DNA of 41,977 nt, taken from contig CAZHTV010000002.1 of NCBI GenBank assembly GCA_964535775.1, positions 1-41,977 on the forward strand, in the 5' to 3' direction. The DNA is from an uncultured Thermoplasmata archaeon (GTDB lineage Archaea; Thermoplasmatota; Thermoplasmata; UBA10834). Below are positions 1 through 25,891 of the stretch, piece after piece (position 1 is the first letter of the stretch; the number at the start of each line of letters is the position of its first letter). The translations under genes were made by a program, and so were the position numbers. Below the pieces are notes generated by a model. The model was given only the letters and a program-made list of their open reading frames with translations, made no database searches and had not been told where the DNA came from.

Positions 1-1116
1 TTGGACGTCCCCACCCAGGAGAAGGAGGTCGCAGAGCATCTCAACGAGTTCCTTCAGGACGAGGGTGTCGAATCAAAGCTCAGGAAGGTCGAGAAGGACA
101 GGCCAAACGTCATCGCGGCTGTGAGGGGTTCGCGCAGCGGAAAGAGCCTGATGCTGAACGGCCACACGGACACTGTGCCGGCCTACGACATGAACATACC
201 GCCGTTCCGGCCCGACGTGAGGAACGGCCGTCTGTACGGCCGCGGCTCGTTGGACATGAAGGGCGGCCTCGGGGCGATGGCGATGGCTTTGGTGGCCATC
301 GAGCGCTCGAAGGTCGAGCTGTATGGAAACCTCTATCTGGCCGCCGTCGTGGGCGAGGAGCGCAGGAGCGAGGGCACGGAGGATCTCATACTGAGAGGCC
401 CGAAAGCGGACATGGCTATTGTAGGCGAGCCGACGGGCCTTGAGATACAGCCGTCCCACAGGGGTCTGGAATGGCTCGAGGTGCATTTCTACGGAAAGGC
501 CGCTCACGGTGGACAGGCGGACAGAGGGGTCAATGCGATATCGATGGCTGCGAGGTTCGTGCGCGAGGTCGAGGACGAGCTGCTCCCGAAGCTGAGGGCG
601 CGCAAGGCGAAGCATACCCTGCCTCCGACCCTCAACCTGGGGGTCATCGAAGGCGGCCAGCAGCCGAGCTCCGTGGCCGACCACTGCGTGGTCAAGGTCG
701 ACAGGAGATGGGTGCCCGAGGAAACGCTGCAACAGGTTTTCGAGGAGATATACCAGATCTTCGACAAGCTGAAGAAAGAGGACCCGAGGTTCAGGGCGGA
801 GCTGAAGCGGGATCCCGCCAACATGAAGACGATGACGCACGTGCCGAACGTCGTCAGCACGGACCACAGGCTCGTGGTATCCCTTAGCCGGGCGGTCAGG
901 GATGTGACCAAGCGGCCCGCGAAGGTCACCACCTTCTGGGGATGGACGGATGCCGCGCTCATGACCCACTTCGGCAAGATGCCAACTGTCGTCTTCGGCC
1001 CTGGGGGCGCGGGCGCGCATTCAAGGGTGGAGTATGTCCTTGTCGATGATCTCGTGCGGTGCGCTCACGTCTATTCGATGACCGCCCTGGACATATGCAG
1101 GACAGGCGCTCGCTAG
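1..1116 (+). CDS. M20 family metallopeptidase/deacylase (ArgE/DapE/LysK-like), probably 5' truncated by the window edge
   Basis: The ORF runs from base 1. The translation carries M20 hallmarks: LNGHTDTVP, GRGSLDMKGG, VVGEE and an inserted dimerisation domain. Family members usually have more N-terminal residues, so the TTG at position 1 is unlikely to be a real start. Confidence 0.8.
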   Translation: MDVPTQEKEVAEHLNEFLQDEGVESKLRKVEKDRPNVIAAVRGSRSGKSLMLNGHTDTVPAYDMNIPPFRPDVRNGRLYGRGSLDMKGGLGAMAMALVAIERSKVELYGNLYLAAVVGEERRSEGTEDLILRGPKADMAIVGEPTGLEIQPSHRGLEWLEVHFYGKAAHGGQADRGVNAISMAARFVREVEDELLPKLRARKAKHTLPPTLNLGVIEGGQQPSSVADHCVVKVDRRWVPEETLQQVFEEIYQIFDKLKKEDPRFRAELKRDPANMKTMTHVPNVVSTDHRLVVSLSRAVRDVTKRPAKVTTFWGWTDAALMTHFGKMPTVVFGPGGAGAHSRVEYVLVDDLVRCAHVYSMTALDICRTGAR

Positions 1117-2723
1117 CAGACGCTCGGAGAATGCCTGAGGATTTGGCCCGCCCGCTCCTTGGTGTGTTTCCCGCGGTCTATCGTCAATGCCCCGTTCACC
1201 AGCACATGACTGATGCCTTCGGGATAGGCATGTGAATGTTCGAACGTGGCCTTGTCGCGCACCCGCTTCGGGTCGAAGACCACGATGTCAGCCCTCATGC
1301 CACGGGCTACTATGCCTCTGTCCTTCAGCCCGATCCTCTCCGCGGGCAGGGAGGTCATCTTCCTCACGGCCTCCTCCAACGAAATCAGCCCAGTTTCGAG
1401 CGCATAGCGTCTGAGGACTCTCGGGAATGTGCCGTAGGCTCTGGGGTGCGATGCGGTCTCGGCCATCGGGCCGTAGGGCGCCTCAGCCTCTCCGTCCGAG
1501 CCTATGGACGCCAGGGGGTGGGCGATGACCTTGGCGACGTCGTCCTCCGACATCTCATGGAAGACCGCGCCCGCTCTCAGCTCCTCATCGACCATGATGT
1601 CCAAGGCCGCTTCGGCGGGGTCGCTGCCAAGCTGGAGCGCTATTTCCGCCACCGACTTGTTCTCGAAACGCCGATACTTGTCGCTCCTGAGGCCTATCAC
1701 GCATATGTTCTCCCAACCGTCCTCGGCAGCGATTGCCTCCCAGTCATCGGAGGGGGTAATCATCTGCTCCTTCGCTTTCTCCCTCGTCTGCGAGTCTTTC
1801 AAGCGGGCGATGATCTCCTCCTTGCTCCCCTCCCTCACCCAGGGAGGCAGTATGGTGTCCAGGGTTGTGCAGGACGCAGTGTACGGATAGACGTCGAAGG
1901 CGACGTCGACGCCTGATCTCCTCGCATCCTCTATCATCCTGATAGTCTGCTGGACCATTCCCCAGCAGCTCTTCCCGCAGGCCTTGTGATGTGATATCTG
2001 GACGCGTGTGCATGCCTTGCGGCCGATGTCTATCGCCTCTGCGACCGCCTTCTGCAACGTCCTCCCCTCGCCTCTGATGTGGCTGGCATAGAACCCACCG
2101 AGGGATGCCGACACCGCAGCCAAGGCCACGAGTTCATCAGTATCAGCATAGCACCCAGGGGCGTAGATGAGTCCCGATGAGAGCCCAAAAGCGCCTTGGA
2201 GCATCGCATCCGCCAGCAGATGCTTCATCTCGGACATCTGGCCCTCGGAAGGTTTTCTGTCACAGCCACCCATCACCGACTCCCTCAGGTTGCTGGCGCC
2301 AACGAGACACGCGACATTGACCGAGGTCGGGAGGTTCGAGAGCCTCAGGAAGTACTCATCCAATGTGGTCCAGTCGACTCTCACATAGAGCGGCTTCGCC
2401 AGGTCGATGAGCGACTCGCGCGCCAAGCCGAGGGCAGGTGCGGGCGAGCCACCGCAGTTGCCCACGAGCTCGGTCGTCACGCCCTGCCTGATCTTGCTCT
2501 CGGCCAGCGGGTTCGCGAGAAGATGTATCTCCGAATGCGAGTGTATGTCTATGAACCCAGGACAGACCACCATATCTGACGCGTCAATCACGACGCTCGC
2601 CCTCGCCTCTGACTGCTTGTAGATGCCTGCGATCTTGGAATCGTCCACAGCGACGTCCCTGGGGACGCGCCTCGCGCCCGTTCCGTCTATGAGGGTGCCG
2701 CCCTTGATGAGAATGTCGTGCAT
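1113..2723 (-). CDS. N-acyl-D-amino-acid deacylase (D-aminoacylase) family amidohydrolase
   Basis: 536-aa ORF. The N-terminus (MHDILIKGGTLIDGTG...PGFIDIHSHSE) has the HxH metal motif, and length and layout fit the D-aminoacylase family. GAGGTGA lies 3 nt upstream of the ATG. Confidence 0.8.
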   Translation of the reverse strand: MHDILIKGGTLIDGTGARRVPRDVAVDDSKIAGIYKQSEARASVVIDASDMVVCPGFIDIHSHSEIHLLANPLAESKIRQGVTTELVGNCGGSPAPALGLARESLIDLAKPLYVRVDWTTLDEYFLRLSNLPTSVNVACLVGASNLRESVMGGCDRKPSEGQMSEMKHLLADAMLQGAFGLSSGLIYAPGCYADTDELVALAAVSASLGGFYASHIRGEGRTLQKAVAEAIDIGRKACTRVQISHHKACGKSCWGMVQQTIRMIEDARRSGVDVAFDVYPYTASCTTLDTILPPWVREGSKEEIIARLKDSQTREKAKEQMITPSDDWEAIAAEDGWENICVIGLRSDKYRRFENKSVAEIALQLGSDPAEAALDIMVDEELRAGAVFHEMSEDDVAKVIAHPLASIGSDGEAEAPYGPMAETASHPRAYGTFPRVLRRYALETGLISLEEAVRKMTSLPAERIGLKDRGIVARGMRADIVVFDPKRVRDKATFEHSHAYPEGISHVLVNGALTIDRGKHTKERAGQILRHSPSVC

Positions 2724-2850
2724 TCGTCACCTCTTGAAGGAAGCTGTCTTGGAGTGCAAGCCCGGGAAGGCCAGAGTGGCTATTGAAGGTTTCTGGTCTC
2801 ACGGCGTCACCGGTCACGGTTTATATCCCAAGCCGCCATTTGGGAATCGG

Positions 2851-3738
2851 ATGGCGCGCCAGTTCGTGTTCCAGAAGTACCACGGCTGCGGTAACGATTT
2901 CATCATCGCGGACGAGATGCACGGAAAGGTCACGCCTGACAAGGAGCGCAGCAGGCTCGCTAAGAGGCTAACAGACCGCAACTTCGGGATCGGAGCGGAT
3001 GGCGTCATATTCATCGAACGCGCAAAGGGTGCCGATGGGTCCATGCGCCTGTTCGAGCCCGCGGGCAACGAGGCCGACATGTGCGGCAACGGGATCCGAT
3101 GTGTCGGTGCGTATCTCATGGAGAAACTAGGGAAGAACTCAGTCAGTGTTCTCTCGAAGGATGGCGTGAAGAGCATCGGCAGAATAGGCCGCATGTACTC
3201 GGTCGAGATGGGCAAGGTGCGGACGACCGGCCGCCACCTGAAGGCATATTATGCGGGCGTGAAGCGCGATTCAGACTCTATGATGAACTTGCGCATCAGA
3301 GCAGGGGGAAGGACCTTGGTCGGGGCGCTTGTGAACTCCGGGGAACCCCACTTCGTGACCAGGACCCGAAGCCTCGGATCATTGAGGGTGTCTGAGATAG
3401 GGGACGCCGTCAACGCCAAGAAACACCTGTTTCCCCGAGGCGTCAACCTCAACTTCGTTCAGGTGATCGCTCCGCACGCGATAAGGATCAGAACCTATGA
3501 AAGGGGCGTTTATGACGAGACGCTCGCTTGCGGCACTGGCGCGACCGCGAGCGCTGCGGTGGCGGTCATGCTAGGATGGGTGCGCCAAGGACCCTTGACC
3601 GTGATCACCAAAGGAGGCGGCATCAAGATCAAGCTTGAGGATGACGGCACAGCCATCATGTCCGGCCCAGCTGTGCGCGTGTTCGAAGGCGTATCGGAGG
3701 AGCCACCCCGACGTGGACGACGCCTCAGCTGCCCATGA
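2851..3738 (+). CDS. dapF: Diaminopimelate epimerase
   Basis: From the ATG at 2851 (MARQFVFQKYHGCGNDFII). Both catalytic Cys motifs are present (MCGNGIRC and ACGTGATA), plus SGEPHFV. The upstream part of ORF 2623.. overlaps the divergent gene and is taken as spurious. A TATA-like GGTTTATATCCC sits at about 2816-2830. Confidence 0.85.
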   Translation: MARQFVFQKYHGCGNDFIIADEMHGKVTPDKERSRLAKRLTDRNFGIGADGVIFIERAKGADGSMRLFEPAGNEADMCGNGIRCVGAYLMEKLGKNSVSVLSKDGVKSIGRIGRMYSVEMGKVRTTGRHLKAYYAGVKRDSDSMMNLRIRAGGRTLVGALVNSGEPHFVTRTRSLGSLRVSEIGDAVNAKKHLFPRGVNLNFVQVIAPHAIRIRTYERGVYDETLACGTGATASAAVAVMLGWVRQGPLTVITKGGGIKIKLEDDGTAIMSGPAVRVFEGVSEEPPRRGRRLSCP

Positions 3739-5074
3739 GCTTCAGCACTTCCTCAGCGGTCTTGAGGGTCCCGTCGATCTCTTCTTCGGTGTGCGCTATT
3801 GAGGTGTAGAGTGGCTTGTCGGGGTGATAGTAGATCCCGCGGGCGAACATCCCGAAGTCGAACATCTCGCGCCTCTTGGTGTCGCACAGCAGAGCATCTC
3901 TGTAGTCGCATATCTTCAGCTCTCCAAACACGATGTTGAAGGTCGACCCAGGGCCAACAGCCTGCGCCGCGATGCCGAGCCGGGAGAACAGGTCGTTCAG
4001 GCCGTCCTGCAACCTGGCAGTTATCCGGTTCAGGTACGGGTAAGTCTCCGGCTCCTCGAGGACGTCCAGGGTCGCCATGCCCGCGGCGAGCACGGTCGGA
4101 TGCCCGTTGAAGGTGCCACCGTGGAACACCCTCTGGTCCTTGGCGCGCGTGGCGGGGTTCACCACGTCCATTATGTCCTTCCTGCCAAGGAACGCTCCGC
4201 ACGGAAACCCTCCGCCCATGATTTTCCCCACGCACATCATATCAGGCGTGACGCCGAACATGGTCTGCGCACCACCGAGCCTGTCCATCCTGAAGCCCGA
4301 CATGACCTCGTCGAAGATCAGTATGATGTCCAGCTCGTCCGTTACCTCGCGGATGGCCTTGAGGAACTCCGGGTCCGCGGCCACGAACCCCCTCTGCACC
4401 GGCTCCATGATGAGAGCCGCAAGGTCGTTCTTGTGCGCCTTGAGCAGCCTGACGGAGCTCTCGATGTCGTTGAAGGGCAGCACCTGCACGCTCTGGAGCG
4501 TGTAATCCGATGTGCCGAGGGAGCACGAGACAGACTGGGGGGCAACCTCCGGCCCGGCGACCTCCTCCGACGGCGTGAGGCTGACCAACGCCTCATCGTA
4601 GCAGCCGTGGTAGTGTCCCTCGAACTTCGCGACCCTGTTCTTCCGCTTATACCCTCTAGCAACCCTCAGCGCGTGCATCGTCGCCTCCAGGCCCGAGTTG
4701 GTGAACCGCGCCCTCTCCGCGCAGGGGAATATCCTGTTCAGGCGCGCGGCCATCTTGGCCTCGAGCTCGTGAGGGGGACCGAAGATCGTGGTGCCGTCCT
4801 TCTCGAGCTGGTCGTGGATCGCCTTGATCACCCTCGGATGGCCGTGCCCGAGGATCAGGGGCCCGAAACACAGCATGTAGTCTATGTACTCGTTCCCGTC
4901 CAGGTCCCAGAGGTGCGACCCCTTGGCCCTCGAGGCATAGATTGGGTAGGGCTTGTGGAACTTCACGTTGCCCGTGACGCCCCCGGGGAGGTGATCGCTC
5001 GCCTCATGGAACCACTGGCGGCTCTTCTTCGTCCTGGCCTCGTATTCGGCGATGGGGTTGAATCCGGCGCACAT
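3725..5074 (-). CDS. Class III PLP aminotransferase, glutamate-1-semialdehyde aminomutase-like (non-canonical HemL paralogue; candidate beta-amino-acid transaminase)
   Basis: 449 aa. It has DEVMSGFR, a PLP-lysine motif (CVGKIMGGGFPCGA) and FNGHP. The N-terminal motif PGGVTGNVKF differs from the HemL PGGVNSPVRAF motif as I recall it. It is the last gene of a tight operon, 7 nt after the CoA-transferase B gene. Confidence 0.8.
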   Translation of the reverse strand: MCAGFNPIAEYEARTKKSRQWFHEASDHLPGGVTGNVKFHKPYPIYASRAKGSHLWDLDGNEYIDYMLCFGPLILGHGHPRVIKAIHDQLEKDGTTIFGPPHELEAKMAARLNRIFPCAERARFTNSGLEATMHALRVARGYKRKNRVAKFEGHYHGCYDEALVSLTPSEEVAGPEVAPQSVSCSLGTSDYTLQSVQVLPFNDIESSVRLLKAHKNDLAALIMEPVQRGFVAADPEFLKAIREVTDELDIILIFDEVMSGFRMDRLGGAQTMFGVTPDMMCVGKIMGGGFPCGAFLGRKDIMDVVNPATRAKDQRVFHGGTFNGHPTVLAAGMATLDVLEEPETYPYLNRITARLQDGLNDLFSRLGIAAQAVGPGSTFNIVFGELKICDYRDALLCDTKRREMFDFGMFARGIYYHPDKPLYTSIAHTEEEIDGTLKTAEEVLKLMGS

Positions 5075-5081
5075 GCGATCC

Positions 5082-5849
5082 TCACCCCAGGTATATGCGC
5101 TCAGGGTCGAGAGCGCGCAGAGCCATTATCTCCCTCTCGGTGGGCGCAGGTGTCTGCTCCAGCTCGTCGGCGACCTTGAGCTTCCAGGGCGTGTTCTCCT
5201 GGACCTTCTCCACGGTCACACCCGGGTGAAGGGACACGAGGGTCATCTCGCCCGTGACATCGTCGAACCTGAGCGTGCCGAGGTTGGTGATGACAGCGTA
5301 AGGTCCCCCTCCCTGGAGCTTGAGCTGCCGCCACTTCTCCTTTCCGTCTATGAAGCCCGGGCTTGTGAGGAAATCAACCTTCTCGACGAACCTCCTCTTC
5401 TCGTGCGGGGTGATGACTATGATCTTCTTCACGTTCGATGCGATGTCGCACGCGCCCCCGCTCCCGGGGAGCCTGACCTTCGGCGTCTTGTAGTCGCCGA
5501 TCACGGTCGAGTTGATGTTCCCGTACTTGTCGATCTGCGCCCCTCCGAGGAACCCGACATCTATCCTGCCGCCCTGGAGGTAGTACGAGAACTGCTCGTA
5601 CATGGAGCACACGCTCTTCGCGCCCGTAACAAGGCACGGGTCGCCGATGGACAGGGGCATCCGGGTCGGGTTCGACCCGACGGCCCCGGACTCGTAGACC
5701 ATGTTCAGGTTCGGCGCCTGCAGCTTCCTGGCTAGGTTTGCCGCCAGGTTCGGAACCCCGACGCCGACCAGGACCGACTCGTGGTCCTTCAGTTCCCTTG
5801 CCGCTACAACGACCATCAGCTCGCTGGATGAGTAATCCACCATCATCAC
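5082..5849 (-). CDS. Family I CoA-transferase, subunit B (glutaconate/3-oxoacid CoA-transferase-like)
   Basis: 255 aa. The translation reads LVGVGVPNLAANLA...MVYESGAVG, with the ESG glutamate at residue 53 in the position of the catalytic Glu of beta subunits. Confidence 0.8.
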   Translation of the reverse strand: MMMVDYSSSELMVVVAARELKDHESVLVGVGVPNLAANLARKLQAPNLNMVYESGAVGSNPTRMPLSIGDPCLVTGAKSVCSMYEQFSYYLQGGRIDVGFLGGAQIDKYGNINSTVIGDYKTPKVRLPGSGGACDIASNVKKIIVITPHEKRRFVEKVDFLTSPGFIDGKEKWRQLKLQGGGPYAVITNLGTLRFDDVTGEMTLVSLHPGVTVEKVQENTPWKLKVADELEQTPAPTEREIMALRALDPERIYLG

Positions 5850-5856
5850 CGCCTCC

Positions 5857-6786
5857 TCACACGCTCCCGTAGTTCACGGGCGCGCTGTAAGCCGCCTTCG
5901 GGAGCAGCTTCAGCACCTTCTCCGTGGGCAGTCTCTTCACGTACTGCTGCCTGTCCTCGACGCCGTAGACCCACTCCTCCATCCATTTCACGGTGGAGTC
6001 GTGCTCCTTCGTTATCTCGTCCCACTGCATGTAGAACTCGTTATCCCTGTCGTAGTACCCCTGCACATATGAGGGATGGCACGCCCAGGGCTCACGGACG
6101 ACTGCGTGAACGACGAAATCCGGTATCAGCGTCCTGTTGGGATCCGACCTGATCAGGGACTCGTCCACGATTTCCTCTGCGCTTACTATGACCTTCTTGG
6201 AGGCGAAGGCCGTATCCTTCTGCTCCCCGATGATCCCCCAGACGTGCGAGTTGCCGTTCGCGTCGCATCTCTGCACGTGGACGACCGCAACATCCGGTTT
6301 GAGGGGAGGGACGACAGATATCTCGTCACCCGTGTAGGGGTCCTTGACAGTGCGTATATTCGGGTTCTGAGGAGGCAGGTCGGAGCCTGTGTTGGTCCTC
6401 ATCGGGAGGAATGGCATGTTGGTCGCGCCGGCAAAGAGCCTGCCCGACATCCCGAAGTGAGAGTACTCCTCTATCTCGATCTTGTTCGGCTGCCCCTTCT
6501 CGAAGGCGCGCCTGAAGCATCTCAGGGAACCAACTCCGGGATTGCCGGCATAGCTGAAGACGAGCTTCTTGCAGCAGCCCGCGGCGATCATCTGATCGTA
6601 GATTATGTCCGGTGTCGCCCTGCAGAGCGTCAGGTCCCTACGCTTCTGCCTGATTATCTCGTGCCCAGCTGCGAACGGTATCATGTGCGTGAACCCGGCG
6701 AGGTACACGGCATCCCCGTCCCTTACGAACCTGGACACGGCCTCCTTCATCGTTGTCAACTTGCCTGCTTCCATCTTCTCATCCAC
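5857..6786 (-). CDS. Family I CoA-transferase, subunit A (GctA-like)
   Basis: 309 aa. The N-terminus (KLTTMKEAVSRFVRDGDAVYLAGF...) and overall length fit the GctA-type alpha subunit. There is a 7-nt gap to the subunit B gene. Confidence 0.8.
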   Translation of the reverse strand: MDEKMEAGKLTTMKEAVSRFVRDGDAVYLAGFTHMIPFAAGHEIIRQKRRDLTLCRATPDIIYDQMIAAGCCKKLVFSYAGNPGVGSLRCFRRAFEKGQPNKIEIEEYSHFGMSGRLFAGATNMPFLPMRTNTGSDLPPQNPNIRTVKDPYTGDEISVVPPLKPDVAVVHVQRCDANGNSHVWGIIGEQKDTAFASKKVIVSAEEIVDESLIRSDPNRTLIPDFVVHAVVREPWACHPSYVQGYYDRDNEFYMQWDEITKEHDSTVKWMEEWVYGVEDRQQYVKRLPTEKVLKLLPKAAYSAPVNYGSV

Positions 6787-6791
6787 CGCAT

Positions 6792-7205
6792 CTATGCTGG
6801 AACGAACTTGAACCCGTACCTGATGACGTCTTCCTCGGTGTATATCTTCCTGAGCTCCGTCCTGACGGGCATGCCGATCTTGACCTCCTTGGGGTCGATG
6901 TCAGCTATCTGTCCTATGACCTTAGGGCCCTCCTCGAGCTCCACGATCGCGACGGGGTACTGTCCCCCTGCCTTCTCCTGCTCCGCGAACTCCGGGGGAG
7001 CCCCGCCTGCGCTTATCAGAACGAACGTGTGCACCTTCCCCTTGCCGCTGAGCTGCGTCTCCTCGAACTCAGAGGAGCCCTGGCACTGCTTGCACACGCC
7101 CTTTGGGGGGAAGTTCACGGCTCCGCACTTCTTGCACTTGTAGCCTATCATCTTGTATCGCTGGGGTATGGTCCTCCAGTACATCGGGACTGAAACATGC
7201 GCCAT
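6792..7205 (-). CDS. DUF35 OB-fold/zinc-ribbon protein (thiolase-associated scaffold)
   Basis: 137 aa. It has a C-x2-C-x10-C-x2-C ribbon (CKKCGAVNFPPKGVCKQC) followed by an OB-fold-like C-terminus. Its position after thiolase and HMGCS-like matches the archaeal trio. Confidence 0.85.
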   Translation of the reverse strand: MAHVSVPMYWRTIPQRYKMIGYKCKKCGAVNFPPKGVCKQCQGSSEFEETQLSGKGKVHTFVLISAGGAPPEFAEQEKAGGQYPVAIVELEEGPKVIGQIADIDPKEVKIGMPVRTELRKIYTEEDVIRYGFKFVPA

Positions 7206-7216
7206 CTGAACTCACC

Positions 7217-8233
7217 TCACCGGATAGCTCCCTTGAGCTTCAGGTACTTGACATAGTCAATGTACTCCTTCCTGTCGGTCTCTGTCTGAACCCTGACCGT
7301 GGCCTTCTTGTCGGTCACGACCGTGAAGCTCAGCGCGTCACTGCCGGCTCCCGAGCCGTATGATATGACCATGATCTTGTCTCCGACCTTCGCCGCGTCG
7401 AGTGCAGATGCCAGTGCGACGGGGACGGAGGCCGCTCCCAGATCCCCGAGGGATTTCGAAACCAGGCTCGAGGCGAGCTGTGCGTCTGTGAACTGGAGCC
7501 TGGCCGCAACCGTGGCCGGGACCCTTGCATCCGGCTGCTGGATGACCACATGCTGGTACTCGTCGGGCTTCCTGCCCAGCCTCTTCAGGAGCGCCAATCC
7601 TGCCCTGGTCGTGTTCAGGACGACGGAACCCTCGGCGAACTTCTTCACGTTCAGGTCGTGCACCAGGGGATCGTCCTTCGGCTTGAACCTCTCTCCGAAA
7701 TGCTCGCTGGCATACGAGACGTGTCCTTCGAGCTCGGCGATGAGGTCGTCAGATGACATCACAAACGCAGCCGCTCCGGCCCCGAATGCGTGTTCCACGG
7801 TATCCCACATGCTCGCCCTGGGCGCGTCGGCCGCTGCTGCCACGGCCTTTCCCGAGGTGGTCGCCAATACGTGTTCGAAGGCAGCCAGCATGGCCTCGGT
7901 ACCGGCCCTCGTTGAACTTGTGTGATCTGATGTGAAGGCGGTGCTGGGCATTCCAACGCTCACCAGAACGGTGCCGGAGAGCAGCTTCTCGAGATAGGGG
8001 GCGGACGTCGATGCCAGAGCGAATCTGGTCACCTTGTCCGCCGTCATCGGGACCGACTCGAGCGCCCGTCTGGTGACCTTGGTGACCGCGGTGAGAGCAT
8101 CCTCGTCAAAGCCGAGCACGGACTTCTCGTTAACGCCAGCTGCCGAGAACGACCCCCACGCCTTCATGTACTCTTCACGCTTTATCCTGAGCCTCGGTAT
8201 GTAGACGCCATATCCTGAGATCCCGACTGCCAT
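7217..8233 (-). CDS. HMG-CoA synthase homologue with degenerate active site (pseudo-HMGCS)
   Basis: 338 aa. Family signatures are present: VGISGYGVYIPRLRIK, SYGSGAGSDA and YIDYVKYLKLKG. At the positions aligned with the archaeal motifs GSES / FACKAGT / FHQPN it reads ASTS / SSTRAGT / IQQPD. Confidence 0.8.
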   Translation of the reverse strand: MAVGISGYGVYIPRLRIKREEYMKAWGSFSAAGVNEKSVLGFDEDALTAVTKVTRRALESVPMTADKVTRFALASTSAPYLEKLLSGTVLVSVGMPSTAFTSDHTSSTRAGTEAMLAAFEHVLATTSGKAVAAAADAPRASMWDTVEHAFGAGAAAFVMSSDDLIAELEGHVSYASEHFGERFKPKDDPLVHDLNVKKFAEGSVVLNTTRAGLALLKRLGRKPDEYQHVVIQQPDARVPATVAARLQFTDAQLASSLVSKSLGDLGAASVPVALASALDAAKVGDKIMVISYGSGAGSDALSFTVVTDKKATVRVQTETDRKEYIDYVKYLKLKGAIR

Positions 8234-8239
8234 CGTGCC

Positions 8240-9406
8240 TCACCTCCTCAGGATGGACACTGCGACAGTGCCGCCCGATCCGCCCACGTTGTGGATCAAT
8301 CCCACTTCCGCACCCTTGACCTGCCTGGCCGGCTTCTGGACGGTGCCTCGGAGCTGGTTGAACATCTCATAGGCCATGCCCGTCCCGGTCGAGCCGATCG
8401 GATGACCCTTCGATTTCAGTCCTCCGCTCGCGTTGACCGGTTTGTCGCCAGCTAGCTGCGTGTGTCCCTCCTCCATGAACTGACCGGCCTTGCCCTTCTC
8501 GCAGAACCCCAGGTCCTCGTAGGCAAGCAGCTCGGCAATGGTGAAGCAGTCATGGACCTCGGCGATTTGGACGTCCTTCGGTGAAAGGCCTGACATCTTG
8601 TACGCTGCAGCAGCTGCGCGCTTGGTGCCCTCAAGCGTCACCGTGCTTACCCTGTCGTGGATCGCGAGGAAATCGCTCGCGCCCCCGAAACCGGCGATGT
8701 AGACCGGCGTGTCCGTGTACTGCTTGGCGACCTCGGTGTCGCAGACGAGCACCGCGGACGCTCCGTCCGTCGTAGAACAGCAGTCGAACAGATTGAGGGG
8801 GTCCGCCACGATAGGCCCTTTGATCGCCTGCTCCATGGTGATTTCCCGCTGGAACTGCGCCTTGGGGTTCTGGGCGCCATTCTTGTGATTCTTCACGGCG
8901 ACCATTGACAGGTGTTCCCTCTTGGTGCCGAACTCGTGCATATGTCTCCGGGCCATGAGCGCGTATAGCCCGGCGAAGGTGGTGCCTGCGAGTCTCTCAT
9001 ATTCGGTGTCCCCTGAGACGCCCAGCCAATACTTCTGTTTCATGCCGGAGACGTCCGTCATCTTCTCGACGCCGCCCGCGATAACGACCTTGTGAGCGCC
9101 CGAGAGGATGTCCAAAGCAGCGGAAATGATTGCATATCCGCCAGAGGCACATGCGTTCTCTATCCTCATCGTGTTGATGTGTGTGAGCCCGCAGTACTCC
9201 GTAACGAGGGCAGACATGTTGCCCAGCTGAAACCCGCCAGAGCCGAGATTGCCTATGTACGCCGATCCGATCGACTTGGGGTCTACTCCCTTGTCTACGC
9301 TCGCGGTCATGTCCTTATAGGCCTCGAAGAAGAGCTCCTTGATTCCCTTGTCGGGGAAGTCGCCGTATCTGCTCTGCCCTGCGCCAACGATAGCCACTTT
9401 CTTCAT
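8240..9406 (-). CDS. Acetyl-CoA acetyltransferase / thiolase (archaeal SCP-x-like type)
   Basis: 388 aa. The nucleophile motif ENACASG (Cys86), GHPIGSTGTG and HNVGGSGG are present. GGGAGGT lies 8 nt upstream of the ATG. Confidence 0.85.
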   Translation of the reverse strand: MKKVAIVGAGQSRYGDFPDKGIKELFFEAYKDMTASVDKGVDPKSIGSAYIGNLGSGGFQLGNMSALVTEYCGLTHINTMRIENACASGGYAIISAALDILSGAHKVVIAGGVEKMTDVSGMKQKYWLGVSGDTEYERLAGTTFAGLYALMARRHMHEFGTKREHLSMVAVKNHKNGAQNPKAQFQREITMEQAIKGPIVADPLNLFDCCSTTDGASAVLVCDTEVAKQYTDTPVYIAGFGGASDFLAIHDRVSTVTLEGTKRAAAAAYKMSGLSPKDVQIAEVHDCFTIAELLAYEDLGFCEKGKAGQFMEEGHTQLAGDKPVNASGGLKSKGHPIGSTGTGMAYEMFNQLRGTVQKPARQVKGAEVGLIHNVGGSGGTVAVSILRR

Positions 9407-9680
9407 CCGAAAGACCTCCCGTCAGGCCCCCTCTCAGGACGCGATCGCCCGGACGCCTGCATGTGCGTTCCAGGCGGTCGATTCTGGATGTCTGGAACAG
9501 CGGTTGCTCGAATCAAGGTCAAGCTATTTAACGATTGGCGATTTACACGGGCCCCCAAGCTGCAAACAGACATGCGGTTACGAAAGGGTGCGCGCACAGG
9601 TCAGCGCCCATCCTCGAATCGTACCGCGCAATCCGAGTTCGTAACGCCGTCGCTTTCGACCTGACAAGATGCTAAATACG

Positions 9681-9695
9681 GAATCGTATAATGGG
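9681..9695 (+). promoter_or_regulatory. Candidate TATA box for kamA
   Basis: GAATCGTATAATGGG lies ~40 nt upstream of the ATG at 9732. Confidence 0.4.
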
Positions 9696-9731
9696 TATGA
9701 CCAGGCTGCGGATTGCGTGGAGGCAGTTGCG

Positions 9732-11006
9732 ATGCGCTCGTACAAGGAAGTATCCCTCTGGAAGAACGTCTTAGAGAAGGAATGGGACGATTGGAAGTGG
9801 CAGCTAAGGAACCGTGTCACCACCCTCGAGCAGCTCAAGGAAGTCATCAACCTCACTCCACAAGAGGAGCAAGGAGTCCGCAAGTCGCTCAGGGTCCTCA
9901 GGATGGCAATCAGCCCGTACTTCGCGATGCTGATGGATCCTGACGACCCACACTGCCCCATCAGGATGCAGGCCGTTCCGACCGTGAAGGAGATAGACTT
10001 CAGCGCTTCTGACATGGAGGACCCGCTCTTCGAGGACACGGACTCCCCTACGCACGGCGTCACTCACAGATATCCCGACAGGGTGCTCTTCCTGATCACG
10101 GACATGTGCGGCAACTATTGCAGGCACTGCACACGCAGGAGGTTCGCAGGCCACAAAGACAGACAGGCCGACAGGTCCGCTATCGACGCCTCCATCAAGT
10201 ACATCAAGGAGCACGAGGAGGTCAGAGACGTCCTCCTCTCCGGCGGAGACGGCCTGATGGTTTCAGACGCGATGCTGGAGGACATAATCGAGCGCCTGCA
10301 GGCCATAGACCATGTGGAGATCGTCAGGATAGGAAGCAGGGCTCCGTGCACGCTCCCACAGCGGATAACGCCTGAACTCTGCAAGATGCTGGCGAAACAT
10401 CATCCGATCTGGCTGAACACCCACTTCAATCACCCGAAGGAGATCACTCCTGAGTCCAAACGGGCCGTGGAGATGCTCGCCGACCACGGCATACCCGTCG
10501 GGAACCAATCCGTGCTGTTGAAGGGAATCAACGACTGCCCGACCATCATGAAGAAGTTGTCGCACGAACTCGTCAAGATCAGGTGCAGGCCCTACTACTA
10601 CTACCAGTGCGACCTCTCGAAGGGCATAGAGCACTTCAGGACCGATGTCGCGAAGGGCATCGAGATAGCAGAGGCCCTGAGAGGGCACACTTCTGGATTC
10701 TGCGTCCCGACCTTCATCATAGACGCTCCAGGCGGCGGTGGCAAGATACCAGTGGGTCCCAACTATCTCATCTCGATGTCGGACAAGAGGGTCGTCCTGA
10801 GGAACTACGAGGGGGGCACATTCACTTACCCTCAGCCGAAGGATCGCACGAGCGTCTGCCCGCCCAGCTGCAGGATGTGCGATGACTACAGCAACCTCGA
10901 GAGCAAGGAAGGCGTTGCAGGAGTACTCTCCGGGAACAAGTTGTGCCTCGTCCCCCAGGGCACGCTGCGTGAGGCCAGGCGCAAGGCGTACCGCAAGAAG
11001 AGGTAG
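9732..11006 (+). CDS. kamA: Lysine 2,3-aminomutase (radical SAM, PLP)
   Basis: It is collinear with clostridial KamA from MRSYKEVSLWKNV..WDDWKWQLRNR. It has the CGNYCRHCTRR radical-SAM cluster, HRYPDRVL, IVRIGSR, NTHFNHP and DAPGGGGK. I chose the ATG at 9732 over 9669 because a TATA-like box at 9681-9695 lies between them and the homology starts here. Confidence 0.9.
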   Translation: MRSYKEVSLWKNVLEKEWDDWKWQLRNRVTTLEQLKEVINLTPQEEQGVRKSLRVLRMAISPYFAMLMDPDDPHCPIRMQAVPTVKEIDFSASDMEDPLFEDTDSPTHGVTHRYPDRVLFLITDMCGNYCRHCTRRRFAGHKDRQADRSAIDASIKYIKEHEEVRDVLLSGGDGLMVSDAMLEDIIERLQAIDHVEIVRIGSRAPCTLPQRITPELCKMLAKHHPIWLNTHFNHPKEITPESKRAVEMLADHGIPVGNQSVLLKGINDCPTIMKKLSHELVKIRCRPYYYYQCDLSKGIEHFRTDVAKGIEIAEALRGHTSGFCVPTFIIDAPGGGGKIPVGPNYLISMSDKRVVLRNYEGGTFTYPQPKDRTSVCPPSCRMCDDYSNLESKEGVAGVLSGNKLCLVPQGTLREARRKAYRKKR

Positions 11007-11048
11007 CGTGACTGCTTCGTGACTGGCCTTCTCGGGGCCCTCGCTCCG

Positions 11049-11061
11049 AAAAGGTTAAAAG
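11049..11061 (+). promoter_or_regulatory. Candidate BRE/TATA for the SAM synthetase gene
   Basis: AAAAGGTTAAAAG lies ~45 nt upstream of the ATG at 11103. The same AAAAGG(A/T)T core is seen at the mvk and hmgA promoters. Confidence 0.45.
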
Positions 11062-11102
11062 CGGAAAAGGATTCTTCCGGCCGACCTTTGCGAGATGAGC
11101 CG

Positions 11103-12299
11103 ATGGCTAGGAATATTTTCATTGAGGAACTCAACCAGCTCCCGATCGAGAAGCAAGGTGTGGAATTCGTCGAAAGGAAGGGCGTTGGCCACCCTGACAG
11201 CATTGCGGACGGCCTTGCAGAGAACGTCAGCAGGGCCCTCTGCAAGATGTACATCAAGCTGTACGGGAGGATCCTGCATCACAACACAGACGAGGTGGAG
11301 GTCGTTGGCGGCCAGTCCGCCCCAAAGTTCGGAGGCGGGGCCATACTGGAGCCGTCCTACATACTCCTGGTCGGGAGGGCGACGACCGAGGTCAACGGGG
11401 AGAGACTCCCTTACAGGACCTGCGCCGTCAAGGCAGCGTACGACTACCTTGAGAGGAACTGCAAGCACCTCGACACCGAATGGGGCGTCACCATCGACTG
11501 CCGGATCGGACAGGGCAGCGTCGACCTCAGAGGGGTCTACGAGACCAAGCGCCTCCTGGCAAACGACACATCGTTCGGAGTCGGGTTCGCGCCTTTCAGC
11601 GAGACCGAGACGATCACGCTCGAAACCGAGAAGTACATCAACGGGAAGCTCGGCAGGACGATGCCGGAGCTCGGCGAGGACGTGAAGGTGATGGCCTGTC
11701 GTATGGAGGACCGAATCGACCTGACCATAGCGGTGGCTATGGTCGACTGCAGGCTGTCGAACAAGAACGAGTACAAGAGCTCCATAGAGCAGCTTACGGA
11801 GAGGGTCACAGACTTTGCCCAGAAGTTCACCGATAGGAAGCTGAGGGTTTTCGTGAACACCGCTGACGACTACAAGGGGGACATATTCTACCTGACCGTC
11901 TCCGGGCTGAGCATGGAGAACGGCGACGACGGCTCGGTGGGCAGAGGCAACAGGGCGAACGGTCTGATAACGCCGATGAGACCCATGAGCATGGAGGCCT
12001 CCGCGGGCAAGAACCCAGTGACGCATGTTGGCAAGCTCTACAACATACTGGCGAACCAGGTTGCGAACGACATAGTCAAGGCCGGAAGGGGGGACATCGT
12101 GGAGGTCCAAACGCGCATATTGTCTCAGATAGGGAAGCCGATAGACAGCCCACAGGCGGCGAGTGCGAGGATGATGTACGCCGACAACGTCAACCCGAGG
12201 AAATACGCAAGAGAGGTCGCCGCCCTGTTCGATGAGAAGCTGGCCAATATCACCGGGTTGACGGACAAGATAGTCGCTGGGAAGATATCCGTATTCTAG
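11103..12299 (+). CDS. metK: Archaeal-type S-adenosylmethionine synthetase
   Basis: From the ATG at 11103 ([37 protein letters not shown]), about 398 aa, which is typical of archaeal MAT. The upstream 28 codons of the track ORF are taken as spurious. Confidence 0.9.
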
Positions 12300-23922: not shown

Positions 23923-23982
23923 CCTGACCGAAAACACCGAAGCGCGTTTCTGTCTAAATAACCTAGTGAGGGCCGAAATCGG

Positions 23983-25760: not shown

Positions 25761-25843
25761 CTGACGCCACCAATCATGCGATGCCTGGAGTTCACACGGC
25801 CTGGCACTTGATTCAGATTGGATATGCTTATATTTTTGCCTGC

Positions 25844-25891
25844 GATGGCCATGCCCTGTAACTGTGGCCATCGAACAGTCACAAGTGGCCA
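25844..25891. promoter_or_regulatory. Candidate operator: three palindromic TGGCCA hexamers, the first two within an 8-bp inverted repeat
   Basis: GATGGCCA (25844-25851) and TGGCCATC (25865-25872) are perfect reverse complements. A third TGGCCA lies at 25886-25891. Spacings are 19 and 21 bp. The sites lie between an AT-rich TATA-like GCTTATATTTTTGC (~25826-25839) and the MFS start at 25907. Confidence 0.3.

Follow-up and report, generated by a model that had tools for sequence, protein, structure and literature searches.

A candidate beta-amino acid degradation operon divergent from lysine 2,3-aminomutase in an uncultured Thermoplasmata archaeon

The window analyzed here, a stretch of 41,977 nucleotides of contig CAZHTV010000002.1 from an uncultured Thermoplasmata archaeon, carries a compact block of six minus-strand genes that lies head to head with a lysine 2,3-aminomutase gene. 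The features of the locus are as follows.

1..1116, (+): M20 deacylase of the ArgE/DapE family, truncated at the window start, 71% identical to a full-length protein in a relative (L001)
1113..2723, (-): metallohydrolase of the Pfam Amidohydro_3 family
2623..3738, (+): DapF-like epimerase (TIGR00652 DapF, 229 bits, residues 82-358)
3725..5074, (-): GSAM-like class-III aminotransferase (AT), 449 aa (Pfam Aminotran_3, 216 bits)
5082..5849, (-): GctB-like CoA-transferase beta subunit (ctB), 255 aa (171 bits to 1POI_B, glutaconate CoA-transferase)
5857..6786, (-): GctA-like CoA-transferase alpha subunit (ctA), 309 aa (Pfam CoA_trans, 88.6 bits)
6792..7205, (-): DUF35 scaffold protein with zinc ribbon and OB fold, 137 aa (Pfam zf-ChsH2 and OB_ChsH2_C)
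7217..8233, (-): tetrad-less HMG-CoA-synthase-like subunit (pseudo-HMGS), 338 aa (homology to 6ESQ HMGS and PhlA)
8240..9406, (-): SCP2/archaeal-type thiolase (thl), 388 aa (304 bits to 6ESQ thiolase)
9407..9668: shared divergent control region (conserved motifs in an alignment of 16 loci)
9669..11006, (+): lysine 2,3-aminomutase (kamA), KamA/AblA type (TIGR03820 AblA, 598.6 bits against a cutoff of 525.4)
11019..12299, (+): archaeal methionine adenosyltransferase (MAT, SAM synthetase), co-directional with kamA (NF003364, 589 bits against a cutoff of 553)

The six open reading frames span 3725-9406 with successive gaps of 7, 7, 5, 11, and 6 nt, the same values that the sequence-only reading had listed from the other end, and Pfam and NCBIfam matches give the order from the 3725 end as class-III aminotransferase, two CoA_trans subunits, DUF35, HMGS-like protein, and thiolase. 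Shine-Dalgarno-like GGAGG/GGTGA motifs precede five of the six starts by 4 to 10 nt, and gaps of 5-11 nt are kept in about 20 genomes. The divergent arrangement with kamA, followed by SAM synthetase, was likewise confirmed. In scans of the larger open reading frames of the 42-kb window, GNAT/ablB, B12-binding domains, KamDE, and BKACE/Kce were all absent, and there was no candidate for Kdd or Kal; this agrees with the earlier statement that the window lacks KamDE, Kdd, Kce, and Kal and has no ablB beside kamA. The same window also carries an HMG-CoA reductase and a GHMP kinase.

KamA matches 2A5H with 575 bits and conserves Asp293, Asp330, and Lys337, the two aspartates being lysine-binding residues. 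Its CxxxCxxC cluster and its QCD and DAPGGGGK motifs are kept in orthologs, and from its sequence we assign it as a genuine lysine 2,3-aminomutase supplying beta-lysine; the actual start may be Met22, at 9732. The longest frame for MAT, which accompanies kamA in 15/15 kamA-linked loci, is over-extended, and gene lengths in relatives point to 11103 as the likely start; the NF003364 match covers residues 29-426. MAT may have a part in the pathway. Within the control region, a TATA-like TATWTAAC element is conserved in the 16-locus alignment and TTCGTAAC occurs as an inverted pair, at 9577-9584 (-) and 9638-9645 (+), and nowhere else in the window (two sites observed against 0.2 expected by chance). 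The exact pair is present in 13 kamA-linked loci and is missing upstream of thl in three loci that lack an adjacent kamA (L020-L022). An Rfam search of the control region returned no match.

The thiolase, HMGS-like, and DUF35 genes had been read as the mevalonate-entry trio joined to new genes, a view that did not survive closer inspection, as these proteins belong to a tetrad-less paralogue class that forms a large separate family. The HMGS-like subunit (148 bits to 6ESQ HMGS, 140 bits to PhlA) has T, T/S, Q, and D at the E-C-H-N positions in 20/20 orthologs, and none of its 73 nearest 50%-cluster representatives carries ECHN. We therefore rejected a mevalonate-entry complex, and the "pseudo-HMGS" label is upheld in that HMGS catalysis is lost; its role is probably structural or CoA-binding. 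The thiolase, on the other hand, is catalytically intact and is proposed to be a 3-oxoacyl-CoA thiolase: VHDCF (HDxF) and KGHPIG (GHx) are kept in 19/19 orthologs, with the CxS motif as NACASGG in 17 and NACGSGG in 2. Both CxxC pairs of the DUF35 protein are kept in 22/22 orthologs. The pattern of motifs in the HMGS-like subunit and the thiolase is exactly that of the experimentally thiolytic PfACAT/HMGS-DUF35 complex, which forms neither HMG-CoA nor acetoacetyl-CoA but cleaves acetoacetyl-CoA (Liao et al. 2026, PMC12960953).

The aminotransferase was examined against the HemL family. It scores 382 bits on hemL TIGR00713, under the cutoff of 527, and compared to GSAM 2HOY it shows Arg32 replaced by Lys, Ser29 by Gly, and Trp67 by Phe, with the Glu406 segment deleted; Arg32 and Glu406 are typical of GSAM. 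A typical HemL was rejected on these grounds, which supports the earlier reading of a GSAM-like class III aminotransferase. All 24 orthologs keep the PLP-lysine GK motif, K38, MLCFGP, and HPDKP, and among its nearest non-GSAM relatives of solved structure are beta-transaminases and the aminotransferase domain of a beta-ketoacyl type (4AO9, 2YKU, 6KFM). The proposed function is that of a beta-amino acid (beta-lysine):2-oxoacid transaminase. Of the CoA-transferase claimed earlier, the two subunits are indeed present, but their class is glutaconate (GctAB), with SCOT/Ato ruled out: the alpha subunit matches 1POI_A with 155 bits over residues 9-300, and 24/24 beta-subunit orthologs keep the ESG motif, which contains the catalytic Glu. 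Since this characterized relative favors C5 dicarboxylates, 3-oxoadipate or 3-oxoglutarate would be no poorer a fit than an amino-keto acid.

Among the Thermoplasmata relatives, every main-clade locus of sufficient length carries the whole block. The expected association with kamA held in 15 GTDB species genomes, in which kamA-MAT is divergent and adjacent as it is in the window (16 loci in all), but not in L020-L022, where the block stands without an adjacent kamA. Adjacency to kamA marks one fairly narrow clade (aminotransferases 67-92% identical), and because this clade also conserves unrelated neighbors, the synteny may in part be inherited. In L020-L022, the genes run thl-pHMGS-DUF35-ctA-ctB-AT behind a left flank composed of an Amidohydro_3 paralogue, a second GSAM-like aminotransferase (AT2), and a methyltransferase. 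Behind the same flank, L030, L036, L038, L065, L083, and L163 hold instead an aminotransferase orthologue, ∼50% identical to that of the block, and a Kce-like BKACE; the short contig L084 has the same pair, and in 7/7 of these sister loci it comes without CoA-transferase or thiolase. The BKACE scores 327 bits on NF052387, under the cutoff of 382, and matches 2Y7D with 201 bits, with Kce as its best family match and 3-oxoadipate:acetyl-CoA acetyltransferase as second best. The BKACE variant also has AT2 and an aldehyde dehydrogenase nearby, and kamA was not seen in any BKACE-variant locus within the sequence available around each. BKACE enzymes convert a free beta-keto acid and acetyl-CoA to acetoacetate and a shortened acyl-CoA, a task equivalent to that of CoA-transferase plus thiolase. 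Displacement of the latter pair by BKACE at the same chromosomal position speaks for an aminotransferase that yields a free beta-keto acid, which would then lose C2.

The flanking genes differ in how closely they follow the block. The Amidohydro_3 neighbor, to which the sequence-only reading gave no attention, is found in 24/25 related main-clade loci, being missing from the short contig L018 only. A paralogue (∼39% identity) occurs in most sister BKACE-type loci of sufficient length, and, for either pathway variant, most loci long enough include one. It is co-directional with BKACE in L164, and it may be an accessory deacylase, lactam hydrolase, or thioester hydrolase. The M20 neighbor is kept in most main-clade loci (TIGR01910 DapE-ArgE, 274 bits against a cutoff of 218 for the full-length L001 protein) and is possibly a deacylase or peptidase supplying the pathway. 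An S58 (DmpA/BapA-family) peptidase, M20 deacylase, and oligopeptide ABC transporter are conserved next to the aminotransferase of either variant, and this holds even for Thalassobacillus. The DapF-like frame is convergent with the aminotransferase and shares 14 nt with its 3' end; it is over-extended, and gene lengths in relatives point to 2851 as the likely start. L007, L010, L023, and L054 retain the block but not the DapF-like gene at this place, and it is probably a neighbor with no part in the pathway.

From these data, we tentatively propose, giving the full scheme slightly less than an even chance, that the block is a catabolic operon for a beta-amino acid, most likely the beta-lysine produced by KamA. 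KamA, whose identity comes from its sequence, would convert L-lysine to beta-lysine, and the aminotransferase would pass the 3-amino group to a 2-oxoacid, freeing 3-oxo-6-aminohexanoate; the free beta-keto acid is suggested by the BKACE displacement and the substrate by synteny. The GctAB-type CoA-transferase, which has its catalytic Glu, would turn this labile acid into its CoA ester, which the thiolase, DUF35, and dead HMGS-like subunit would cleave to acetyl-CoA and 4-aminobutyryl-CoA, the HMGS-like subunit probably completing the CoA-binding interface; the substrates of both steps are predicted. If 4-aminobutyryl-CoA donates its CoA to the next round, as it may, the net reaction becomes beta-lysine + 2-oxoacid + CoA → acetyl-CoA + GABA + amino acid. 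The Amidohydro_3 and M20 neighbors could, speculatively, deacylate precursors or rescue 4-aminobutyryl-CoA and its cyclization product 2-pyrrolidone. Of the short route put forward earlier, transamination followed by C2 cleavage is backed by the BKACE displacement, while beta-lysine as the substrate has synteny as its evidence. We regard the beta-keto acid logic of the operon as well supported and the choice of beta-lysine as evenly balanced.

The same module and chemistry could act on another beta-amino acid, such as 3-aminoadipate or beta-glutamate (giving 3-oxoadipate or 3-oxoglutarate), 3-aminobutyrate, or one derived from imported peptides, with the kamA adjacency inherited or regulatory. 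The kamA-less blocks of L020-L022, BKACE variants without kamA in the available sequence, the resemblance of the CoA-transferase to a dicarboxylate enzyme, the second-best BKACE family, and the conserved S58 peptidase, M20 deacylase, and oligopeptide transporter all favor this reading. We nevertheless consider it rather unlikely, given that kamA is adjacent in 16 loci with operator-like motifs conserved in the shared promoter region, that the best BKACE match, Kce, acts on an amino-keto-hexanoate, and that AT2 and aldehyde dehydrogenase fit a diamino substrate passing through GABA to succinate. Free amines raise another difficulty, as 3-oxo-6-aminohexanoate should cyclize to 1-pyrroline and 4-aminobutyryl-CoA to 2-pyrrolidone, which counts against the free-amine route. 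Barker's Pseudomonas B4 beta-lysine route, one step away from the chemistry proposed here, reportedly avoids cyclization by N6-acetylation. In a route of this type, N6-acetyl- (or otherwise acylated) beta-lysine would proceed through 3-oxo-6-acetamidohexanoate to 4-acetamidobutyryl-CoA, to be deacylated by Amidohydro_3 and/or M20, with the acyltransferase encoded elsewhere or N-epsilon-acetyl-beta-lysine scavenged from methanogens. Such protection would remove the cyclization difficulty. Two deacylase-family enzymes are conserved beside the operon, the L164 Amidohydro_3 is co-directional with BKACE, and AT, BKACE, Amidohydro_3, and AT2 of the sister cluster correspond one-to-one to the B4 transaminase, cleavage enzyme, deacetylase-thiolesterase, and GABA transaminase. 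The Bacillus subtilis yodT-yodS-yodR-yodQ-yodP-kamA operon, close to the block in gene content, encodes besides KamA a GNAT and an M20 deacetylase together with a CoA-transferase and a class-III aminotransferase. Unlike the B4 route, however, the archaeal loci compared here have no conserved acetyltransferase: the scanned frames of the window include no GNAT/ablB, the sole GNAT near a relative (L001) recurs in no other locus, and the small gene conserved in sister genomes encodes a SAM methyltransferase, making amine protection improbable in our view. The two known systems also make the description of the pathway as "undescribed" too strong, although the function of the yod operon is still unknown (PMC6522883, PMC12361552).

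Two further explanations carry very little weight. Public annotations (HMG-CoA synthase, glutamate-1-semialdehyde aminomutase), family scores (NF003274, 256 bits against a cutoff of 244; NF000818, 397 against 398), and the HMG-CoA reductase and GHMP kinase of the window would suit a chance string of housekeeping genes with no shared pathway, comprising mevalonate-entry thiolase/HMGS/DUF35, tetrapyrrole HemL, and acetoacetate CoA-transferase. This is highly improbable, as the tetrad, whose mutation abolishes HMG-CoA synthesis (PMC12960953), is gone in all 20 orthologs, the GSAM signature residues are absent, the short gaps are conserved in ∼20 genomes, and a BKACE in place of CoA-transferase and thiolase beside an aminotransferase orthologue would be hard to explain. 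We give equally little credence to a PhlACB/MucABC-like C-acyltransferase or biosynthetic condensing complex working in the anabolic direction, with the aminotransferase making a beta-amino acid. The HMGS-like subunit does share the loss pattern of PhlA, with Q and D likewise in place of H and N, and the thiolase, CoA-transferase, and aminotransferase reactions are reversible in principle. But the thiolase keeps the HDxF motif lost in Friedel-Crafts acylases and resembles archaeal ACAT (304 bits) much more than PhlC (114 bits), the BKACE that performs the equivalent function is a cleavage enzyme, PKS or NRPS genes were not found nearby, and the neighborhood consists of peptidases and transporters.

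If the beta-lysine operon proposed here is real, it would constitute a short, vitamin-B12-independent route of lysine breakdown in an uncultured archaeon, and it would give a role to the widespread "dead HMG-CoA synthase" thiolase complex.

The six close-packed minus-strand genes that the sequence-only reading had placed divergent from kamA and a SAM synthetase gene were described accurately, as judged from the ORF list and from Pfam and NCBIfam matches. The genes of this block and the two that diverge from it are as follows.

3725-5074, minus strand: class-III aminotransferase, glutamate-1-semialdehyde aminomutase (GSAM)-like, here AT (Pfam/NCBIfam)
5082-5849, minus strand: CoA-transferase subunit, beta, GctB-like (Pfam/NCBIfam)
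5857-6786, minus strand: CoA-transferase subunit, alpha, GctA-like (Pfam/NCBIfam)
6792-7205, minus strand: DUF35 protein with zinc ribbon and OB fold (Pfam/NCBIfam)
7217-8233, minus strand: HMG-CoA-synthase (HMGS)-like protein (Pfam/NCBIfam)
8240-9406, minus strand: thiolase (Pfam/NCBIfam)
9669-11006, plus strand: kamA, lysine 2,3-aminomutase (TIGR03820, 598.6 bits)
11019-12299, plus strand, 3' of kamA: archaeal methionine adenosyltransferase, MAT (family models)

Counted from the AT end, the genes of the block are separated in the ORF list by 7, 7, 5, 11, and 6 nt, and GGAGG- or GGTGA-like motifs precede five of the six starts. A spacer of 262 nt lies between the thiolase gene and the divergent kamA, and to the left of the block are a convergent DapF-like epimerase, Amidohydro_3 hydrolase, and truncated M20 enzyme. 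[quoted passage not shown] No tetrapyrrole genes were found in the window.

For three window genes the longest-ORF start lies too far upstream. The DapF profile match begins at residue 82 of the ORF at 2623-3738, the DapF proteins of relatives are 286-287 aa long, and the true start is likely 2851; the MAT match begins at residue 29 of 11019-12299, with a likely true start at 11103; and kamA orthologs align from residues 17-22 of 9669-11006, with a true start perhaps at 9732. Directly after MAT, a gene at 12329-17386 (minus strand) encodes a 1685-aa protein whose sole domain is an N-terminal DUF835, and this protein is kept at the same position in L003, L012, L017, L005, L006, and L011 with 34-79% identity. 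Farther along, a protein of the acyl-CoA:6-aminopenicillanic-acid acyltransferase family (PF03417) adjoins two tandem KaiC-like ATPases (22855-25892, minus strand), and no link of the PF03417 protein to the operon was seen in relatives.

KamA scores 598.6 bits against the AblA-type equivalog TIGR03820 (cutoff, 525.4) and 575 bits against the Clostridium subterminale enzyme (2A5H). Alignment with the latter shows that the PLP lysine Lys337 is kept together with Asp293 and Asp330, the ligands of the lysine epsilon-ammonium group, and the radical-SAM CxxxCxxC motif is kept in KamA orthologs. By these sequence features KamA is a real lysine 2,3-aminomutase. The spacer between the thiolase gene and kamA is conserved in 16 loci, with a TATA-like box and copies of TTCGTA. 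The element TTCGTAAC occurs twice in the whole 42-kb window (9577-9584, minus strand, and 9638-9645, plus strand; 0.2 expected by chance), and both copies sit in the spacer (9407-9668) as an inverted pair; a further, degenerate copy lies near 9620. An exact TTCGTA-N14-TTCGTA is found in 13 kamA-linked loci, and none lies upstream of the thiolase gene in the kamA-less loci L020-L022. The inverted TTCGTAAC pair is probably the operator of a putative regulator. No Rfam riboswitch match was obtained in the kamA leader or spacer.

Over its full length the HMGS-like protein matches the archaeal 6ESQ HMGS (148 bits), with PhlA close behind (140 bits). The positions of the catalytic tetrad of true HMGS (E-C-H-N) hold T, T, Q, and D in the window and T, T/S, Q, and D across all 20 sequences compared, the window protein and 19 recovered orthologs. 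Glu82 and Cys114 are essential residues of HMGS, whose CoA site lies at the interface of all three subunits of the complex (PMC6392133), and replacement of the tetrad abolishes HMG-CoA synthesis (PMC12960953). The block had been thought to carry the mevalonate-entry trio of thiolase, HMGS, and DUF35; with the tetrad replaced in 20 of 20 sequences no HMG-CoA can be made, and we reject that assignment.

The thiolase, by its conserved motifs, is catalytically intact: the HDxF motif (VHDCF) and the GHx motif (KGHPIG) are present in 19 of 19 orthologs, and the CxS motif reads NACASGG in 17 of these and NACGSGG in 2. The CxxC pairs of the DUF35 protein are kept in 22 of 22 sequences, and the thiolase, HMGS-like, and DUF35 genes stand side by side. 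A Friedel-Crafts acylase of the PhlACB type was also weighed. PhlACB and MucABC additionally lose HDxF (PMC12960953), and the acceptor pocket of the thiolase-like subunit is remodelled in such acylases. This reading was rejected, as HDxF is kept in all 19 thiolases and the window protein scores 304 bits against the thiolase (ACAT) of 6ESQ and 114 bits against PhlC. The same combination of a dead HMGS-like subunit and a thiolase keeping CxS, HDxF, and GHx has been described for PfACAT/HMGS-DUF35 of Pseudomonas fluorescens (Liao et al. 2026, PMC12960953), which makes neither HMG-CoA nor acetoacetyl-CoA and cleaves acetoacetyl-CoA (PMC12960953). Since the motif pattern of the window trio is that of a complex shown to be thiolytic, we predict by analogy that the trio is a degradative thiolase complex. 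The window proteins are three separate chains in an archaeal host, in contrast to the HMGS-DUF35 fusion of P. fluorescens, and their genes share an operon with those of a CoA-transferase and aminotransferase, which provides a candidate pathway. They likewise share three families in adjacent genes with the archaeal mevalonate-entry complex of 6ESQ, but the catalytic residues of HMGS are replaced and thiolysis is predicted rather than condensation.

When 1.84 billion cluster representatives (50% clusters) were searched in full with HMMER, 756 relatives of the HMGS-like protein were obtained at E<=1e-10. Of the top 150 (P0361-P0510), only ∼17 carry E-C-H-N and roughly 130 are tetrad-less; the first relative with E-C-H-N stands at rank 74 with 32% identity, and all 73 nearer representatives are tetrad-less. 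Many of the tetrad-less relatives are 470-500 aa long and look like HMGS-DUF35 fusions. The tetrad-less HMGS-like family is thus large and old, and ∼1,000 bacterial HMGS-ACAT-DUF35 loci have been found with their pathway undefined (Liao et al. 2026, PMC12960953). A GHMP kinase, probably mevalonate kinase, and an HMG-CoA reductase are encoded divergently from each other at 31926-34278, ∼20 kb from the trio. Their presence indicates that the organism uses the mevalonate pathway, and since the trio is tetrad-less, a functional HMGS must be encoded outside the window.

AT reaches 382.5 bits against the HemL equivalog TIGR00713, below the cutoff of 527.3, and 397.2 bits against the subfamily model NF000818 (cutoff, 398). 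Compared with the GSAM of Synechococcus, Arg32 is replaced by Lys, Ser29 by Gly, and Trp67 by Phe, and the Phe-Glu segment with Glu406 is deleted; we take these four residues (Synechococcus numbering) to be part of the GSAM substrate site. With the score below the equivalog cutoff and these residues replaced or deleted, AT departs from a typical HemL. Throughout the clade, K38, MLCFGP, and HPDKP stand in their place without variation. Besides GSAMs, the solved relatives of AT include 4AO9 and 2YKU (beta-phenylalanine and other beta-transaminases), 6KFM (the beta-ketoacyl aminotransferase domain of mycosubtilin synthase), and D-phenylglycine aminotransferase, and in sister genomes two GSAM-like paralogues lie side by side. 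The public names of these proteins among the matches P0001-P0240 are "hydroxymethylglutaryl-CoA synthase" for 7217-8233 and "glutamate-1-semialdehyde 2,1-aminomutase" for 3725-5074. Because the first protein lacks the whole tetrad and the second the GSAM signature residues, both names are probably a systematic over-annotation across many Thermoplasmata MAGs.

The CoA-transferase subunits (∼310 and 255 aa) are GctA and GctB homologs, far closer to GctAB than to SCOT/Ato, with 155 bits against chain A and 171 bits against chain B of glutaconate CoA-transferase (1POI). The catalytic Glu in the ESG motif of the beta subunit is kept in 24 of 24 orthologs.

AT has hundreds of relatives with 67-93% identity, the named ones being Thermoplasmata or Thermoplasmatota MAGs, and the host MAGs come from spring (Zodletone), aquifer-sediment (Rifle), and soil metagenomes; in view of these sources a Marine Group II origin, suggested by the GC content and by Thermoplasmatota matches, was rejected. 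Protein searches were filled by close relatives with at least 66% identity, and the more distant contexts described below come from scans of genomes and metagenomes. We scanned one genome per GTDB species with the AT alignment as query and then mapped the window proteins by tblastn; longest-ORF calling gave spurious antisense ORFs in loci of 65-70% GC, and tblastn mapping with Pfam was used instead. Identities and counts given here accordingly rest on tblastn mapping of fetched loci and not on curated annotation. The scan yielded 25 Thermoplasmata loci of the window type (65-92% identity), 4 Thermoplasmata loci at ∼50%, and ∼50 Bacillales loci, mostly Bacillaceae, at ∼45%; the nearest genome locus is L003, a Zodletone-spring Thermoplasmatota MAG, with 92% identity.

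The six-gene block is complete in every main-clade locus with a long enough contig. The expectation that kamA accompanies the block in relatives held in part: kamA and MAT are divergent and adjacent in 15 relatives (L001, L002, L003, L005, L006, L009, L010, L011, L012, L013 (partial), L015, L016, L017, L023, and L054), but L020, L021, and L022 have the full block with no kamA within 5.6 kb upstream. In L007 the kamA position falls in a gap of 100 N, and the kamA link is known from a single clade. A GNAT gene in L001, four genes or ∼2.7 kb beyond kamA, was rejected as an ablB candidate, having no counterpart in any other locus. The operon is flanked by peptidase and peptide-transporter genes. 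A peptidase of the S58 (DmpA/BapA) family, members of which can release N-terminal beta- or D-amino acids, lies within a few kilobases of the AT subfamily in L001 (15285-16379), L163 (5544-6644), and L020 (11370-12458), and also near it in the two Bacillaceae loci L070 and L080 (Thalassobacillus), usually with oligopeptide ABC transporter genes alongside.

Ahead of the block, L020-L022 carry genes for an Amidohydro_3 paralogue, another GSAM-like aminotransferase (AT2), and a small SAM methyltransferase. Those three genes, 62-85% identical, also precede an AT of ∼50% identity in L030, L036, and L038, and in L065 AT2 and the methyltransferase gene likewise precede such an AT; neither the CoA-transferase nor the thiolase trio is present in the L030, L036, L038, and L065 loci. 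The three-gene set spans about 1000-5300 in L020-L022, 5326-9201 in L036, and 12249-16146 in L163; AT2 is ∼36% identical to AT, and the methyltransferase is a UbiE-like protein of 180 aa. In the sister genomes the AT orthologue is paired instead with BKACE, encoded in L036 at 11273-12103. A metagenome scan found two further AT-BKACE pairs (L083 and L084), and the 1-Mb contig L163 is arranged likewise and also encodes a peptide ABC transporter, S58 peptidase, and aldehyde dehydrogenase.

The nearest match of BKACE is Kce, with 327 bits on NF052387 (cutoff, 382) and 201 bits to 2Y7D; at the position of Kce Glu14, presumably the amine-binding residue of that enzyme, BKACE has Val. Enzymes of the BKACE type convert a free beta-keto acid and acetyl-CoA to acetoacetate and an acyl-CoA two carbons shorter. 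A CoA-transferase followed by a thiolase would give the same shortened acyl-CoA, plus acetyl-CoA, and the two non-homologous solutions occupy one chromosomal position beside orthologous ATs. This displacement argues for a free beta-keto acid as the product of AT and for action in the order transaminase, CoA-transferase, thiolase. The Amidohydro_3 enzyme is present with both versions, is co-directional with BKACE in L164, and probably belongs to the system.

More distant AT homologues were weighed separately. Those of Bacillaceae (∼45%) were rejected as a functional guide, being paired with an RpiR regulator and having as neighbouring KamA-family gene only a distant paralogue. That distant gene stands beside the AT homologue in two Bacillaceae loci, L075 and L076, and in L076 this radical-SAM gene lies upstream, next to a B12-radical-SAM gene. 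An RpiR/MurR-family regulator is found 3' of the AT homologue, which shares the MLCF motif, in both loci examined (L028, 9980-12217; L076, 9956-12216). AT-like genes (38%) beside a thiolase and DUF35 in L130, L142, and L148 were not counted, since they appear no closer than solved GSAMs and may be true HemL. In L085 (1510-7838), an AT homologue (51%) lies between two MttB-superfamily methyltransferases with a corrinoid protein, on a contig that also encodes an M20 enzyme, an Amidohydro_3 enzyme, a peptide-binding protein, and Gct-like CoA-transferase subunits; this neighbourhood may be a link to quaternary-amine metabolism.

In the pathway that we propose, KamA would convert lysine to beta-lysine, AT would transaminate beta-lysine at C3 to 3-oxo-6-aminohexanoate, the Gct-type transferase would form the CoA ester of this product, and the thiolase complex would cleave the ester to acetyl-CoA and 4-aminobutyryl-CoA, which may donate its CoA for the next cycle and leave GABA. 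We observe the enzyme families, catalytic residues, operon structure, synteny, and displacement directly, and every pathway substrate is inferred from them. The general chemistry, in which a beta-amino acid becomes a beta-keto acid that then undergoes C2 cleavage, is likely to be right, and for free beta-lysine as the substrate we would put the chances at even. The free-beta-lysine pathway is weakened by the occurrence of both the block and the BKACE variant without adjacent kamA, by the preference of characterised Gct enzymes for dicarboxylates, and by the tendency of the free gamma-amino ketone and of 4-aminobutyryl-CoA to cyclise, given that no acetyltransferase is conserved.

The last of these points bears on a variant in which the substrate would be N6-acylated beta-lysine and the Amidohydro_3 or M20 neighbours would act as deacylases. 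Amidohydro_3 and ArgE/DapE-type M20 enzymes, candidate deacylases, are indeed conserved beside the operon, but no acetyltransferase is conserved among the loci and none is present in the window, and we consider this variant unlikely. A reductive pyrimidine pathway, in which the neighbours would be a dihydropyrimidinase, an M20 beta-ureidopropionase, and a beta-alanine aminotransferase, was rejected because the M20 protein is of the ArgE/DapE type and the hydantoinase/dihydropyrimidinase model gives the amidohydrolase no more than ∼45 bits. Returning to the free-beta-lysine pathway, its fullest form would be a B12-independent lysine shunt of Thermoplasmata with three enzyme steps after KamA (a beta-lysine 3-transaminase, a Gct-type CoA-transferase that recycles the CoA of the product, and a thiolytic ACAT/pseudo-HMGS/DUF35 complex) yielding acetyl-CoA and GABA. 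One chromosomal position would hold either of its two interchangeable versions, CoA-transferase with thiolase or else BKACE, and Amidohydro_3 would handle self-cyclising 4-aminobutyryl-CoA or 2-pyrrolidone. In all these particulars together we put it forward tentatively, as a possibility with the odds somewhat against it.

The closest known system in chemistry is the L-beta-lysine catabolism of Pseudomonas B4, reportedly worked out by Barker and co-workers in the 1970s-80s (EC 2.6.1.65 and later steps). There beta-lysine is said to be N6-acetylated first, which avoids cyclisation, and then to be acted on by N6-acetyl-beta-lysine transaminase; an acetyl-CoA-dependent cleavage of the BKACE type reportedly follows, giving 4-acetamidobutyryl-CoA and acetoacetate, and a deacetylase-thiolesterase and GABA transaminase are said to finish the pathway. 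To our knowledge, its genes have never been firmly assigned. In both routes transamination at the 3-amino group gives a 3-oxo-hexanoate derivative, from which removal of C2 leaves the CoA ester of a 4-aminobutyrate derivative, and the sister cluster of AT, BKACE, Amidohydro_3, and AT2 maps onto the enzyme list of that pathway. The window differs in having no acetyltransferase, in using a Gct-type CoA-transferase with thiolase, DUF35, and pseudo-HMGS, and in its archaeal host of an anaerobic lineage. The literature searched held nothing relevant on 3-oxo-6-aminohexanoate, 6-acetamido-3-oxohexanoate, 4-acetamidobutyryl-CoA, or 4-aminobutyryl-CoA, and nothing on an aminomutase in Thermoprofundales.

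The closest system in gene content is the sigma-E operon yodT-yodS-yodR-yodQ-yodP-kamA of Bacillus subtilis, which we take to encode a class-III aminotransferase, a two-subunit CoA-transferase, an M20 ArgE-like deacylase, and a GNAT (YodP) besides KamA. Like the window, it links kamA to genes for a class-III aminotransferase and both subunits of a CoA-transferase and has an M20 deacylase gene nearby; it is an independent instance of this gene combination, in a different domain of life. By gene content and synteny, the window has the trait common to the Barker and yod systems, a class-III transaminase and predicted CoA-dependent C2 removal linked to kamA. YodT is BioA-like and YodSR is of the SCOT/Ato type, whereas the window has a GSAM-like AT and a Gct-type transferase; the yod operon also has a GNAT, no thiolase trio, and a co-transcribed kamA, whereas that of the window is divergent. 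The functions of KamA and YodT are given as unknown (PMC6522883, PMC12361552).

Clostridial and Fusobacterium lysine fermentation likewise starts with KamA, uses a CoA-transferase and a thiolase, and cleaves an amino-beta-keto-hexanoate to a C2/C4 unit and aminobutyryl-CoA, and the BKACE of the sister loci is closest to its Kce. The window, however, lacks the B12-dependent KamDE as well as Kdd, Kce, and Kal; the transaminase would act straight on the 3-amino group, so that acetyl-CoA and 4-aminobutyryl-CoA would be expected in place of acetoacetate and 3-aminobutyryl-CoA. The ablA-ablB synthesis of the osmolyte N-epsilon-acetyl-beta-lysine differs in having the ablB GNAT that is missing beside the window aminomutase. 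The pathway had been called undescribed, and this needs narrowing: its chemistry is near that of Pseudomonas B4 and its genes are near the yod operon, but the archaeal host is new and so is the proposed enzyme set, in which a GSAM-like enzyme serves as transaminase, a Gct-type one as CoA-transferase, and a recruited tetrad-less HMGS/ACAT/DUF35 complex as thiolase, with BKACE as the alternative.

These comparisons supply candidate genes for activities of Pseudomonas B4 known only from enzymology, the (N6-acetyl-)beta-lysine transaminase and the cleavage of the 3-oxo-hexanoate, and offer a testable function for the long-unexplained yodT-kamA operon of B. subtilis. The probable mis-annotations as "HMG-CoA synthase" and "glutamate-1-semialdehyde aminomutase" would mislead MAG-based reconstructions of isoprenoid and haem metabolism. 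For tetrad-less HMGS/ACAT/DUF35 complexes the operon offers a concrete metabolic context and, if the proposal is true, this very large family would gain its first assigned physiological pathway. The proposal, if true, would also mean that lysine can be degraded anaerobically without the B12-dependent beta-lysine 5,6-aminomutase, Kdd, Kce, or Kal.
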